This document shows positions 45,612 through 63,079 of a DNA stretch of 64,000 bases, piece after piece. A program made the translations under genes and the position numbers. Below the pieces are notes generated by a model. It was given only the letters and a program-made list of their open reading frames with translations. It had not been told where the DNA came from and did not search any database. The stretch is from Pedobacter sp. (lineage in GTDB: Bacteria > Bacteroidota > Bacteroidia > Sphingobacteriales > Sphingobacteriaceae), in contig JBBCJN010000007.1 in the NCBI GenBank assembly GCA_037190785.1, forward strand, positions 109,952 through 173,951, read 5' to 3'. Each line of letters opens with the position of its first letter. Positions within the stretch are counted from its first letter, which is position 1.

Positions 45612-45699
<88 letters not shown>

Positions 45700-58387: not shown

Positions 58388-60106
58388 ATGATTAAAAATT
58401 TAAAATACATCGCATCTCTGGATCGTTCGGGGATGAAAAAAGCACTGATATGGGAGATTCTGCACAGTTGCCTCGTGGTGGCTCCTTCGGGAATAGTACT
58501 CGCGATTGTCCGTGAATTGTTTACGGAAAACCCTGATCCATCCAAACTGTGGGCCTTAACAGGTTCGATTGCAGCCTTGTTACTTCTGCAATTTTGGGTA
58601 GCGACCAAGGCCATGCTTCGCTCTAATCAGTGGGTATACGGACTTTCTACCCAGTTAAGGATGTTATTAGGCAACCGAATACAAAAATTTTCACTGGGAT
58701 TTTTTAAAAAGCGAGACCCTGGTGAGATTGCCTCAGTAGTGTTGCAGGATGTGGCCAATTTTGAAGGAATTTTTGGCCATAGCATTGGGAACATGGCGGC
58801 AGCAATTTTTGGAACGGTCTTTCTGTCCGGATTTCTTCTAATGTATGACTGGCGACTGGCTCTATGCCTATTGGTGGCTATCCCTTGTGTGATTCCATTT
58901 CTATATATAGCCAACCGACTGATCTCCAGGCTGGGAAAAAAGCAGATTGCTGCCAGAAATCGGGTGGTCGCAAAATTTCTTGAGTACCTTCATGGAATAA
59001 GGCATCTGAAGGCCTATGGTTTAACCGGACAACAGCATGAAGTATTAGATGCTTCCTTTGATGAGCTTCGAAAACGGAGCATCCGAATGGAAGCGCTGCC
59101 CGGGCCGTTTATGCTCGTAGCAGGAATCGTCTTCGAGATTGGTTTTATCCTAATGACGACCTTGGGTCTCTACTACCTCAATGGGAATCAGTTAAGTATA
59201 CCCGTTTTTTTGACATTCTTATGGTTGGGATATCATTTATATGGGCCTTTAAAAGTGTTAATGGTAGATTACGTGGTATTGAGGTATATGAACGAAAGTC
59301 TTCATAGAATTTTAGAAGTCATGGAGGAGCCTACTATGGAAGTGAGTGCCGATGAATGGCCCCTTCAATTTGACCTTCATTTTGAACAGGTGAACTTTGC
59401 CTATCAGGAAAAATTGGTGTTGAGAGCGGTTAGTTTCAGTGTTCCTCAGCATTCAATGGTAGCATTGGTGGGGCCTTCTGGTTCGGGAAAAACGACCATT
59501 GCTTCACTCATTGCCAGATTCTGGGACGTCAGTGAAGGTCGTATTCGAATTGGAACCGTCGACATTCGTCATATTGATCAGAATCGTTTTTATCAACTCA
59601 TCAGTGAAGTATTTCAGGAAGTATACCTCTTTAATGACAGCATTTACAATAATATCAAACTGGGAAATCCTGAGGCGACCCACGAAGAGGTTATTGATGC
59701 AGCCGATAAAGCGCAGGTGCTTGGTTTTGCCTGGGAATTGCCAGAAGGTATGGATACGCAGGTTGGTGAGGGCGGCAGCAAGTTGTCGGGAGGACAAAAG
59801 CAACGGATAAGTATTGCACGTGCACTTTTAAAAAATGCTCCGATCATTCTTCTGGATGAAGCCACTGCCAGCCTGGATCCCGAAAATGAGGTCTACATCC
59901 AACAGGCCATTCAGGAACTGATAAAGTCTAAAACGGTGTTGGTTATTGCCCATAAGCTGGCAACCATTCAGCATGCCGATCAAATTCTTGTACTCAATAA
60001 AGGCAGTATTGTAGAAAGGGGAACACATGAACTCCTCCTTCAGCAAAAGGGCGTGTATCATCATTTATGGACTCTTCAGCAGGAAGCCGAAGGGTGGACA
60101 GTTTAG
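58388..60106 (+). CDS. ABC transporter fused TMD-NBD (YbtQ/IrtB-like)
   Basis: GPSGSGKTT, LSGGQKQRISIAR, LDEATASLDPENE; partner of the upstream half-transporter. Confidence 0.9.
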   Translation: MIKNLKYIASLDRSGMKKALIWEILHSCLVVAPSGIVLAIVRELFTENPDPSKLWALTGSIAALLLLQFWVATKAMLRSNQWVYGLSTQLRMLLGNRIQKFSLGFFKKRDPGEIASVVLQDVANFEGIFGHSIGNMAAAIFGTVFLSGFLLMYDWRLALCLLVAIPCVIPFLYIANRLISRLGKKQIAARNRVVAKFLEYLHGIRHLKAYGLTGQQHEVLDASFDELRKRSIRMEALPGPFMLVAGIVFEIGFILMTTLGLYYLNGNQLSIPVFLTFLWLGYHLYGPLKVLMVDYVVLRYMNESLHRILEVMEEPTMEVSADEWPLQFDLHFEQVNFAYQEKLVLRAVSFSVPQHSMVALVGPSGSGKTTIASLIARFWDVSEGRIRIGTVDIRHIDQNRFYQLISEVFQEVYLFNDSIYNNIKLGNPEATHEEVIDAADKAQVLGFAWELPEGMDTQVGEGGSKLSGGQKQRISIARALLKNAPIILLDEATASLDPENEVYIQQAIQELIKSKTVLVIAHKLATIQHADQILVLNKGSIVERGTHELLLQQKGVYHHLWTLQQEAEGWTV

Positions 60107-60325
60107 AGAGGGTGCAATGGTAAAGTAGCGGTTTTTTTTTAAAGTTAAAAAGTAAGCTTTCTTCATTTATAATGCGCACTGCCCGCTTTTCAGGAGGGTG
60201 TTTTTTTATGAAGGAGAGCCTAAGAAACTCTCTAAACTACTCCTACAACCGTACAAACTCCGGTTATCCATTGCATCATTTTGTCATATAATAAAGGATT
60301 ATTTAGAGGATAAAATTAAAACCAC

Positions 60326-60333
60326 TACTTTCG
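60326..60333 (+). promoter_or_regulatory. Candidate -7 promoter element for the riboswitch transcript
   Basis: TACTTTCG about 30 nt upstream of the aptamer. Confidence 0.4.
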
Positions 60334-60364
60334 TGCCCGTAAAGTTCTTTTTTATTTCTTTATC

Positions 60365-60527
60365 AACCGAAAGAGGTTACACCGCAACGTGTATTAAAAG
60401 GGAATCGTGTGTAAATCACGAGCTGTCGCGCAACTGTAAGTAACAGGAAAGGTATTTATTAAGAGCATTCACTATCTGTTGAGGAGGGGAAAGGTCATAA
60501 ATACGGTTACAAGTCAGATACCTGCTT
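60365..60527 (+). ncRNA. Cobalamin (B12) riboswitch
   Basis: GGTT-ACAC/GTGT hairpin, AAAAGGGAA, TCGTG-TGTAAAT-CACGA T-loop hairpin, GCTGTCGCGCAACTGTAA, GTAAC/GTTAC and GTATTTAT/ATAAATAC stems, CACT...GGGAAAG, AAGTCAGATACCTGC. Confidence 0.9.
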
Positions 60528-60617
60528 TTTTCGAGTGGACGATGCTTTCGCGATTTGAAGCTGGAGTCAGGTAGAGGTGATTTTGTAGAGGAGCCATTCT
60601 CTTGCTAAATCCAGTTT

Positions 60618-60645
60618 AGAGGATGTGCATATCCTTTTTTCTTCT
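60618..60645 (+). terminator. Candidate attenuator terminator in riboswitch expression platform
   Basis: AGAGGATG-TGCA-TATCCTTT stem with G-U pairs followed by a T/C-rich tract. Confidence 0.4.
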
Positions 60646-60856
60646 CTGTTTCTATTTTTCATGTCGGCATTGTGAAGCAAAAAGGAACATTTGCCGGTTA
60701 CACCATGCTGTAATCACTAACGGGCGATGCTGGAATAACCGTTTCATTGATCAAAATGCTATAGCGGATGGTTAATTAAATGGTAAAACAGGCTAATCAC
60801 TGTTCATTCATCAGCCTGAAATGTACATATAAAGATAGACTATTTAAAAAACAGAA

Positions 60857-61891
60857 GTGGAAGGTCCCGGGATTTTCCACCTCAAAAGGATCAACAGATT
60901 TGTGGAGAATTTAAAGGTTACAGCGGGTATAGCTGCCATTGGAGGATATGTGCCTCCTGCGATTTTAACTAATCAGCAATTGGAAAATACACTGGATACC
61001 ACCAATGAGTGGATTGTTTCAAGAACGGGTATTAAAGAGAGACATATTCTCAAAGATCCTTCCATGGCTACTTCAGATATGGCTGCGCTGGCCATTCAGA
61101 ATTTGTTAACTCACTACGGTGTGGATCCTTTAACGGTGGAATGTTTGATTTTGGCCACTTCAACCCCCGATTACATACTCTGTCCAACGGCCGGCATTGC
61201 CTGTGAGAAAGCAGGCTTATTAAACGCTTGGGGTTTTGATATGAATGCTGCCTGTAGCGGCTTTCTCTATGCCTTATCCATCGCAGCAGGTATGATCGAG
61301 AGCCAAAGACATCAACGAGTGCTTGTTGTAGGGGCCGATCAGATGAGTACGATTGTCAATTATGAGGACCGAAATAGTTGCATTCTGTTTGGTGACGGGG
61401 CAGGAGCTGTTTTATTGGAAGCACGTACGGATGGACATGGAATTCAAGAAAGCCTTTTCAGAACAAACGGAAAAGGAGCATCGTCACTGTATGTCCCTGC
61501 AGGCGGATCAGCGATGCCATTATCTCTGGAGGTACTTAACGAAAAGAAACAGTTTATCCATCAGGATGGTAGAACGGTTTTTAAGGAGGCCATTCGGAAC
61601 ATGAGTGCAACCAGTGAGGAATTACTTGACAAAGCAGGGATTTCCCCGACACACATTAATTGGGTTGTGCCTCACCAAGCAAATCTGCGTATAATAAAAG
61701 GTGTAAGCGAAGAAATTGGCATTCCGATGGAGAAATTCAAGGTAAATATCGAACGCTATGGGAATACCACTGCAGCGACTCTCCCATTGTGTCTCTGGGA
61801 TTTTAAAAATGACTTCAAAGAAGGGGATTATGTGTTGTTGACTGCGTTTGGAGCAGGCTTTAATTGGGGGAGTACCCTGATGAAATGGTAA
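60857..61891 (+). CDS. fabH: Beta-ketoacyl-ACP synthase III (FabH paralog)
   Basis: WIVSRTGIKERH, NAACSGF (Cys), PHQAN (His), YGNTTAA (Asn), AFGAGFNWG; GTG start at 60857 or 60902. Confidence 0.93.
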   Translation: MEGPGIFHLKRINRFVENLKVTAGIAAIGGYVPPAILTNQQLENTLDTTNEWIVSRTGIKERHILKDPSMATSDMAALAIQNLLTHYGVDPLTVECLILATSTPDYILCPTAGIACEKAGLLNAWGFDMNAACSGFLYALSIAAGMIESQRHQRVLVVGADQMSTIVNYEDRNSCILFGDGAGAVLLEARTDGHGIQESLFRTNGKGASSLYVPAGGSAMPLSLEVLNEKKQFIHQDGRTVFKEAIRNMSATSEELLDKAGISPTHINWVVPHQANLRIIKGVSEEIGIPMEKFKVNIERYGNTTAATLPLCLWDFKNDFKEGDYVLLTAFGAGFNWGSTLMKW

Positions 61892-61932
61892 CGGTTTTTT
61901 CAAAAAAAGCAAAACTGGACAAAAGGAAATCA

Positions 61933-62150
61933 ATGGATATCCGAAGAGAAAAACTGTCTTCTGCTGAGGGAGGGAAACGTTTATTGTTGCATTCTTGGTG
62001 TGCTCCCTGTTCAGGAGAGGTCAGGTAGGCTATCATCGCCGCTGAAATTGAATTTACCCTCTTTTTTTATAACCTTAATATCCATCCCAGAAAAGAGTAT
62101 GAAATTCGCAAGGAGGAGAACGTCAGATTTGCTGAGAAACATCGTATTCC
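61933..62150 (+). pseudogene. queH: Epoxyqueuosine reductase QueH (DUF208) 5' fragment with in-frame stop
   Basis: Hand translation from ATG 61933: [72 protein letters not shown]. Resembles QueH HSCCAPCSGEVMEA...FYNPNIHP..EY..RKEEN.RFAEKHGIP; TAG at 62026-62028; truncated near 62150. Confidence 0.85.
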
Positions 62151-62323
62151 ATCACTCACCACGTATCCCTTCTAAGGAAGAAATGGTACAACTTCTTCAA
62201 AGGGCAAAAGCCATTATTCCGGAAGATCAGCTTTGGGTAAATCCGGATTGTGAACTTAAAACCAGGCATTGGGATGACACACAAAAAGCCCTTAAAGCGA
62301 TGGTAGAAGCCGTGCCTTTGTGA
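62151..62323 (+). pseudogene. metE: Cobalamin-independent methionine synthase MetE 3' fragment
   Basis: [40 protein letters not shown]...ALKAMVEA matches the MetE C-terminus (HSPRVP...LWVNPDCGLKTR); only about 57 codons remain. Confidence 0.88.
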
Positions 62324-62365
62324 CATCTCGGCGTATGAAAGTGAACTTTTAAAAACACCTGTCTT

Positions 62366-62402
62366 AAAATACCGGATCGGCTAATTCCTGTTCCGGTATT
62401 TT
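62366..62402. terminator. Hairpin between metE remnant and convergent pdeM
   Basis: AAAATACCGGA...TCCGGTATTTT. Confidence 0.65.
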
Positions 62403-62443
62403 TGGGGATAATCCAAAAACCATGGACCCCATCCGGTTCAATA

Positions 62444-63079
62444 TTAAATGCTGATTATTTGCTGAGGAGTAATGGCAAATACCCGGTCACTGGCAGTTGG
62501 TTGAATTAATTTTAGACCTGTAAAATGACTGAAAGCAGGTAAAATGGCGTATTTTTCACCGAAATAGAAGCAGGGTAACCGTAGGCGCTGTTTTACCTTG
62601 TTGGAGATTAGGACACCAGGATGCAGGTGACCGCTAATGGGATACAAATCTGAAAAACTATTTTTTGCATCATGGACAAAACAGAATGGTTCCATTTGAA
62701 AGCTAGGTTCAAATACCTCGATCCGCATGTCTTTGTAAACAGTTTCGTGTTGCCTGTCGTGGTTGCCTTTCACCAGTATAAAGCGGATTTCTCTCCAGCT
62801 CTCTTTCCATCGGCCGAACTCGGCGATTTCCTCGTTCCAGTCACTATGGAACATGTCTCCGTTGATCACTAGGGTATGGGGCTGGTAGTGGTCAAGCAAA
62901 TGGGATAAACGTTGAAGATCTTTTTGAGCTACCTGGTCGGGGATCGCGATTCCCGCTTTACGAAAATGGGCTGCTTTTCCTAGGTGAAGGTCACTAATCA
63001 CCAATACCCGTCTTTCCGGGAAATAGAGGGCTCTTTCAACGTCTAAAATAAGCTGCTCAGATCGGATGGAAATTTTCAC
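62444..63079 (-). CDS. pdeM: Ligase-associated DNA damage response endonuclease PdeM (metallophosphoesterase)
   Basis: ISDLHLGKAAHFR, NGDMFHS, KGNHDR, SGHLHPG, LPAFSHFTG. Confidence 0.88.
   Translation of the reverse strand: MKISIRSEQLILDVERALYFPERRVLVISDLHLGKAAHFRKAGIAIPDQVAQKDLQRLSHLLDHYQPHTLVINGDMFHSDWNEEIAEFGRWKESWREIRFILVKGNHDRQHETVYKDMRIEVFEPSFQMEPFCFVHDAKNSFSDLYPISGHLHPGVLISNKVKQRLRLPCFYFGEKYAILPAFSHFTGLKLIQPTASDRVFAITPQQIISI

Follow-up and report, generated by a model that had tools for sequence, protein, structure and literature searches.

Regulons of cobalamin (vitamin B12) riboswitches have so far comprised genes for the uptake and synthesis of B12 together with a small number of B12-independent isoenzymes (MetE versus MetH, NrdAB/NrdDG versus NrdJ and QueH versus QueG), and they can be read as a map of the cell's response to cobalamin shortage. 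Here we analysed a stretch of 64,000 nucleotides (nt) from a Pedobacter sp. genome (NCBI GenBank assembly GCA_037190785.1, contig JBBCJN010000007.1, positions 109,952 to 173,951 of the forward strand; hereafter the window), in which a B12 riboswitch is followed by fabH, a gene for a β-ketoacyl-acyl carrier protein (ACP) synthase III (KAS III). The encoded protein belongs to a paralog clade, termed FabH-B, whose genes usually adjoin a thioesterase gene. With modest confidence, we read positions 60326-62403 as one riboswitch-led unit and FabH-B together with the thioesterase as a module under B12 control that acts as a sink for acyl-coenzyme A (acyl-CoA). The analysis points to a link between B12 supply and fatty acid priming which is undescribed in the literature searched; no paper was found there that names fabH or a YciA-like thioesterase as a member of a B12 regulon. 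The RegPrecise survey covered, within the Bacteroidota phylum, only the Bacteroidaceae (PMC3766115), and a specialised KAS III in a vitamin-linked setting has been described in BioZ, which uses a glutaryl-CoA primer and is encoded in a biotin operon (PMC8024396).

Riboswitches and thioesterase genes at FabH-B loci

Phylogenetic analysis placed the FabH of the window within FabH-B with a support of 100/100 and a stem length of 0.34-0.5. Members of this clade were found in Flavobacterium, Gelidibacter, Mucilaginibacter and Pedobacter, separately from the housekeeping FabHs that these genera encode, and their occurrence is patchy (10 of 24 Pedobacter congeners and four of 400 genomes sampled across the class). 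A search for cobalamin riboswitches (RF00174) upstream of the genes and on the same strand revealed matches at 18 of 48 non-redundant FabH-B loci, whereas all 30 loci with other FabHs lacked one (Fisher p = 5e-5). Near-duplicates had been removed for this count and no opposing gene was allowed between riboswitch and fabH; part of the survey was done with nhmmer and a model of 21 riboswitches, which found all previous cmscan matches again and no additional ones.

The linkage takes six architectures. The order riboswitch-metE-fabH-thioesterase is present in Mucilaginibacter, two Pedobacter and Flavobacteriaceae-like metagenome contigs; riboswitch-fabH-thioesterase in F. cerinum and at loci L156, L036, L247 and L249 (with short leaders of ~117 nt at L247 and L249); riboswitch-thioesterase-fabH in F. 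microcysteis and at L055; riboswitch-TonB receptor-DUF5074-PAS-thioesterase-fabH in Gelidibacter and at L243; and riboswitch-metE-fabH at L042. The window arrangement, riboswitch-fabH followed by a queH::metE stub, is the sixth. When mapped on the FabH-B tree, the presence or absence of the riboswitch shows at least nine changes, and the riboswitch is present in all major subclades. Genomes with this linkage hold only one to five cobalamin riboswitches each, and in Gelidibacter gilvus the single riboswitch leads an operon ending in thioesterase-fabH. Because of the 18 of 48 loci and the six architectures, against 0 of 30 control loci, membership of the FabH-B clade in the B12 regulon is well supported by comparative sequence data. 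An earlier note on this DNA had raised B12 control of this fabH without knowing FabH as a regulon member; the recurrence of the paralog clade behind RF00174 in other Bacteroidota supports a place of this FabH in the regulon.

The partner gene encodes a 4HBT hotdog thioesterase (C2:507444-507878 in the Pedobacter genome of the window, where C1 to C3 denote contigs), which scored 66.5 bits with PF03061. With the YciA equivalog model NF007970 it reached 46.5 bits at a cut-off of 162, so that it is a distant relative of YciA rather than an equivalog. Its gene is found on either side of fabH, separated from it by 0-5 nt, and in 10 of 23 FabH-B genomes a riboswitch is nearby; one Pedobacter has riboswitch-metE-thioesterase with fabH elsewhere. 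In the genome of the window, the thioesterase gene stands alone behind a riboswitch of its own (101.8 bits, C2:506943-507130; gene and riboswitch within L110 2944-3882). As fabH and the thioesterase gene lie at separate riboswitch loci, the module is split in this genome, each half having a B12 riboswitch. The other riboswitches of the genome head queH, mesX-mesD and a btuB-type uptake operon. A second thioesterase copy, at the end of the riboswitch-queH unit, is a pseudogene with a 39-amino acid (aa) internal deletion and no start codon.

Further genes were observed around these loci. At C1:134581-137779 (L029 3582-6780), the riboswitch-queH pair is followed by an aGPT-Pplase3/ADDT-like gene split in two open reading frames (ORFs) and by the thioesterase pseudogene, and a second riboswitch leads mesX, a core-MetE-like gene, an SBF-like transporter and an old yellow enzyme (OYE) reductase. 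B12-riboswitch uptake operons of Flavobacteriaceae include a DUF5074 protein (L035 1374-3474, L243 3412-5484, L030 28-3221), and in Gelidibacter-like genomes a small protein with a PAS domain is also encoded between the TonB receptor gene and thioesterase-fabH. In the Flavobacterium psychroterrae group, an S-adenosylmethionine (SAM) riboswitch (L049 17-116, L052 144-243) leads a same-strand run of AhpC/thioredoxin-like, class-V aminotransferase and VOC/glyoxalase-like genes that ends, after a 236-nt gap, in FabH-B. A family of ~330 aa (cluster c17) recurs beside the fabH/thioesterase module (L039 2911-3882, L217 3823-4833, L048 757-1755, L110 4298-5338); from its sequence we take it for a putative AraC/GlxA-type regulator, possibly the regulator of the module where a riboswitch is absent.

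An alignment of 38 FabH-B and 21 housekeeping FabH sequences showed consistent differences in the primer pocket (numbering, here and for the catalytic residues below, according to E. coli FabH). Position 87 is Phe, Tyr or His in the housekeeping proteins and Leu or Met in all FabH-B proteins, position 88 is Pro in the former and non-Pro (Val, Thr, Ala, Leu or Cys) in the latter, position 215 is aromatic versus small or polar, and position 306 is Gly in 18 of the 21 versus Ala in the 38. These exchanges suggest an altered primer pocket, and the primer preference of FabH-B may differ accordingly. Position 87 is likewise aliphatic in V. cholerae FabH2 (4wzu), which prefers longer primers. The best solved-structure relatives of the window FabH are ordinary FabHs, e.g. 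1ub7 (E 5e-75). A biotin enzyme of the BioZ type was ruled out for FabH-B, since the match to the BioZ structure (PDB 9j6e, E 2e-50) is weaker than that to 1ub7 and the protein is much nearer to true FabH.

The riboswitch-led locus in the window

The coordinates of the locus are given in Table 1. Searching the window with cmscan revealed a match to RF00174 that spans the full model (positions 1-189) with 75.8 bits and an E-value of 7e-17, well above the gathering score of 31.5. The L5 loop (GUCGCGC) and the P13/L13 hairpin agree with the consensus of the leaders of relatives, and in the region of this hairpin GCTTTCGCG is unchanged across eight aligned leaders. By what is known of this riboswitch class, the CGCG loop of P13/L13 can form a kissing interaction with the CGCG loop of L5. 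About 24 nt 5' of the aptamer lies TACTTTCG, a candidate -7 promoter box judged from its sequence; relatives have TAnnTTTG at the aligned position.

Table 1. Features of the locus in window coordinates
Feature	Position	Strand	Basis
Candidate Bacteroidota -7 promoter box TACTTTCG	60326-60333	+	consensus TAnnTTTG, one mismatch
Cobalamin riboswitch aptamer	60357-60543	+	RF00174 by cmscan, full-length; grouped with Pedobacter metE riboswitches
P13/L13 hairpin GCTTTCGCGATTTGAAGC	60544-60561	+	predicted in folds
Weak hairpin with T-run (attenuator candidate)	60618-60644	+	7-bp stem
Expression-platform motif GGCATTGTGAAGC...AAAAAGGAACATTT	60666-60695	+	leader alignment
fabH paralog, FabH-B clade (KAS III), 329 aa	60902-61891	+	GTG start; Pfam and NCBIfam
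queH pseudogene, N-terminal ~75 codons	61933-62157	+	PF02677 positions 1-59 of 175
metE pseudogene, last ~57 codons, different frame	62147-62323	+	PF01717 positions 268-321 of 324
Strong terminator hairpin with U-run	62366-62403	+	-20.2 kcal/mol, z -3.5

The spacer between aptamer and fabH comprises 358 nt (60544-60901). It contains no ORF of note and no significant terminator, no remnants of a thioesterase gene or of prpBCD were found in it, and a scan for internal promoters detected no exact TAnnTTTG box; boxes with one mismatch are too frequent to be informative, and a sigma-70 scan is unsuited to Bacteroidota. The motif at 60666-60695 has a counterpart, GCATTGTGAAG..AAAAGAGCTTTTAAC, in related Bacteroidota B12 leaders. 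A comparison of 60100-62450 with the remaining genome gave matches to other riboswitches, queH and fabH only, with no traces of repeats or mobile elements.

The fabH gene begins at the same GTG position as its closest orthologue and ends with TAA (61889-61891). Its product carries both KAS III Pfam domains (PF08545, 106.8 bits; PF08541, 104 bits) and scores above the cut-offs of the NCBIfam fabH subfamily models (NF006829, 373.1 bits at a cut-off of 249; TIGR00747, 321.6 bits at a cut-off of 292.1). The catalytic triad Cys112-His244-Asn274, invariant across the FabH-B clade, is present. The protein lies on a long branch (0.41-0.57) and retains 97 of 99 clade-invariant columns, by which it looks functional. 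The housekeeping FabH of the same genome (C3:1083111) is 48% identical to it, and two further, more distant KAS III-like genes were found in this genome.

Downstream of fabH follows a gap of 41 nt up to the queH start codon without a stable hairpin (-3.5 kcal/mol, z +0.4). Both genes behind it are dead. The queH part has an in-frame TAG (62026-62028) and a Cys-to-Trp change in its CCAPC motif; it shows 68% identical aa with the intact QueH encoded at C1:135095-135769. Its frame ends after ~75 codons and then joins the last ~57 codons of metE in another frame (61933-62323). This direct run of a queH start into a metE end indicates that a deletion of ~2.6 kb fused the two. A full MetE would be expected to have both Meth_synt domains in a frame of ~770 aa, of which the last 54 positions of PF01717 are left; the best match of the stub is a Pedobacter MetE (74%). 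Working counterparts are located on contig C1, each behind its own riboswitch, namely queH and mesX with the core-MetE gene.

The hairpin at 62366-62403 is the first strong terminator after the aptamer, and none of 200 shuffled sequences folds as well. It sits between the metE stub and a convergent metallophosphoesterase gene and has U-runs on both sides, so it probably serves as a bidirectional terminator. The earlier note had described a complete B12 aptamer, an intact stand-alone fabH (here seen in the domains, triad, start and stop codons and invariant residues) and a fabH-queH gap without a clear hairpin, from which it placed fabH in the riboswitch-led operon. These claims agree with our results, the first strong terminator being that at 62366-62403, whereas queH (with metE), which it had taken as a functional partner of fabH, turned out to be a dead fusion stub by its TAG codon, Cys-to-Trp change and truncated profiles. 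Elsewhere in the window, an ordinary-looking tRNA gene with a long variable arm was detected at 45612-45698 (RF00005, 57.9 bits).

A putative acyl-CoA sink and competing explanations

In the reading that we prefer, the unit would consist of a promoter, the cobalamin aptamer, an expression platform of ~360 nt, fabH, the dead queH::metE stub and the terminator, and its sole live gene would provide a FabH-B paralog with an altered pocket alongside the housekeeping FabH. Across Bacteroidota, FabH-B and the adjoining YciA-like thioesterase would form a two-gene module that has been recruited repeatedly to B12 riboswitches, be it on its own, downstream of metE or as the last part of operons for B12 uptake. 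By analogy with the usual logic of B12 riboswitches, expression is likely off when cobalamin is bound, and the module would be made when cobalamin is absent. The substrates of both enzymes would be short acyl-CoAs (of the propionyl or of the butyryl/isobutyryl type) that stay unprocessed when adenosylcobalamin (AdoCbl)-dependent mutases are idle, i.e. methylmalonyl-CoA mutase (MCM) in most relatives and IcmF alone in the genome of the window. FabH-B would use these acyl-CoAs as primers of fatty acids and the thioesterase would release the CoA. We infer that the pair acts as a sink for short acyl-CoAs when B12 is scarce; as both enzymes take acyl-CoA, two sinks of one pool fit better than sequential steps. 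A more specific proposal, which we regard as tentative and somewhat less probable than not, is a cobalamin-repressed 'acyl-CoA overflow' module: with AdoCbl scarce and the acyl-CoA mutases (MCM, IcmF) stalled, the cell would switch on the thioesterase and an additional KAS III whose primer pocket is wider, and propionyl or branched short acyl-CoAs would be drained by the two enzymes, ending up as fatty acids or as free acids.

The route by which propionyl-CoA is processed independently of B12 is the methylcitrate cycle, encoded by prpBCD. The closest homologue of the window FabH (70% identical aa; sister to it with a support of 99/95) comes from a Pedobacter metagenome-assembled genome (MAG), in which it is the fourth gene of a prpB-prpC-prpD-fabH operon with a 33-nt gap. 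This is independent support for the propionyl-CoA idea of the earlier note, given by a single instance. The cause proposed in that note, an idle MCM, cannot apply in the genome of the window, as canonical MCM is missing from it and was found in 23 of 24 congeners. Its proteins with a B12-binding domain are only MetH and IcmF, the latter being the sole AdoCbl acyl-CoA mutase (NF045497, 1832 bits; C2:4268-7645) and followed by a butyryl-CoA:acetate CoA-transferase-like gene. The prpBCD genes of this genome are located on C1, without fabH, and are closed by a terminator; no riboswitch was found ahead of prpB in this genome or in the MAG.

The missing MCM and the single prpBCD-fabH linkage weigh against the preferred reading, and so do several further observations. 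No IcmF or MCM gene was found in any FabH-B locus, 30 of the 48 FabH-B loci have no riboswitch, and 19 of 20 thioesterase loci in other Pedobacter are without one within 1.5 kb. A hairpin with T-run, claimed earlier as a candidate attenuator, is present at 60618-60644, but its stability (-7 kcal/mol, z -0.5) is no better than that of shuffled sequence; a pyrimidine-rich tract occurs again at the same relative place in related leaders, which are too divergent for a covariation test of the hairpin. The ~260 nt between this T-run and fabH could conceal a promoter. The remaining points concern the origin of the window riboswitch and its fabH, and they lead to the best surviving alternative, namely that the riboswitch is a relic.

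According to this alternative, which we consider rather unlikely, the riboswitch is left over from a native Pedobacter riboswitch-metE operon, between whose parts a foreign fabH landed with queH before the operon decayed; fabH would now be expressed constitutively, either because transcription reads through the damaged riboswitch or because the gene has a promoter of its own, and would show no B12 response. The aptamer does group with Pedobacter metE riboswitches (SH-like approximate likelihood ratio test (SH-aLRT) 98), on a fast-evolving branch of 0.33 that is 5-10 times longer than theirs. It is the lowest-scoring of the five cobalamin riboswitches of the genome (the other four reach 96-104 bits), and its B12 box is present but 1 nt short (AGUCA-GAUACCUGC). 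Its score is nevertheless far over the threshold and equals that of presumably working copies such as L149, and L5 and P13/L13 are intact.

The fabH gene itself is foreign to the native riboswitch and metE. The window FabH is excluded from the Pedobacter FabH-B lineage (approximately unbiased (AU) test, p = 7e-7) and is placed with Flavobacteriaceae members and the prpBCD-linked MAG copy, and QueH was not found in any of 40 relatives sampled. With a Pedobacter-type riboswitch and metE stub and a foreign fabH and queH between them, the locus is, as judged from these sequence relationships, a mosaic in decay. The earlier note had held that a recent insertion of fabH into a riboswitch-queH-metE locus would speak against it. 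An insertion or replacement is what the AU test indicates; the absence of a GC anomaly at the locus suggests that the event was not recent. In the flanks, the order Lhr-metallophosphoesterase is kept in four congeners and the ABC-transporter side is not kept, and no clean 'empty site' could be demonstrated from this comparison.

The deaths of queH and metE and the loss of MCM are in line with a relic, as is the homologous leader of the closest relative: in the MAG, 67 nt 5' of prpB (L241 3125-3190) align to the promoter and 5' leader of the window (60300-60372; score 39, shuffles at most 29), with the aptamer missing, which hints at a loss of the riboswitch in the MAG lineage. A relic sits less well with the partner thioesterase, which retains a healthy riboswitch in the same genome, and with the spacer, where an exact TAnnTTTG box was not seen. 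Moreover, a foreign fabH that again comes to lie behind a B12 riboswitch is expected under selection for that wiring. Since the locus is a decaying mosaic in this genome, control by the riboswitch may be weakened; that the riboswitch still works there appears to us slightly more probable than not.

Another chemistry of the module, in which FabH-B and then the thioesterase make a small product (a beta-keto acid, methyl ketone or signal) under B12 or methionine stress, is improbable. In its favour, the close translational coupling, seen whichever of the two genes comes first, suggests a common pathway; special primers are used by other FabH paralogs, e.g. BioZ in biotin operons (PMC8024396); and the loci show links to metE, those of one group also lying 4 kb downstream of a SAM riboswitch. 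However, the thioesterase belongs to the YciA/acyl-CoA type (PF03061, with a weak match to NF007970), whereas the product of KAS III is an acyl-ACP, FabH-B scores as standard FabH and tailoring genes are not conserved nearby. Least probable of all is that FabH-B and the thioesterase merely travel by descent with metE or B12-uptake operons whose riboswitch serves metE or btuB only, as the frequency of riboswitch-metE-fabH-thioesterase (the commonest architecture), the Gelidibacter pair at the end of an uptake operon and the many clade members without any riboswitch could suggest, because riboswitches dedicated to fabH and/or the thioesterase gene occur at L036, L038, L156, L048, L055, L247, L249, L149 and the C2 locus of the window genome, two of these dedicated loci have the short leaders mentioned above, both gene orders are seen and the association extends through all major subclades.

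Significance and comparison with known systems

If the proposed B12-controlled sink is correct, a chain-initiating condensing enzyme and a thioesterase under a B12 switch would link both lipid composition and the balance of short acyl-CoAs to the supply of the vitamin. As odd and branched chains prevail in the membranes of Bacteroidota, this link could be significant for the phylum; B12 supply would reshape membrane fatty acids in soil and aquatic Bacteroidota. The module would represent a fourth class of B12-sparing function beside MetE, NrdAB/NrdDG and QueH, and it would offer a physiological handle on IcmF and may help to explain the role of this enzyme. Several named isolates have a riboswitch that controls just fabH and the thioesterase gene, which makes the idea testable in culture. 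The lesson of the window itself is narrower, as it is a decaying mosaic in which two of the three genes counted on are dead.

Compared with the control of isoenzymes by B12 riboswitches, FabH-B has the same RF00174 sensor in its 5' leader and is often in the same operon as metE; unlike the known targets, it is no isoenzyme of any B12 enzyme and would, if our reading is right, act as a bypass or sink. With the housekeeping FabH it shares fold, domains, Cys-His-Asn triad and subfamily scores above the cut-off, but it forms a separate clade of patchy presence, is 48% identical to the copy of its own genome and has the aromatic residues at 87 and 215 replaced by aliphatic or small ones. Like BioZ (PMC8024396), FabH-B is a second KAS III in a vitamin-linked operon, presumably with a non-standard primer, whereas it shares its operons with a thioesterase gene, metE or prpBCD and not with a biosynthetic pathway. 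As regards the methylcitrate cycle, the prp operon of the MAG holds the closest FabH homologue, a linkage seen once, and the prpBCD of the window genome stands alone with no riboswitch before prpB; common to both systems would be the use of propionyl-CoA when the B12 route is unavailable.

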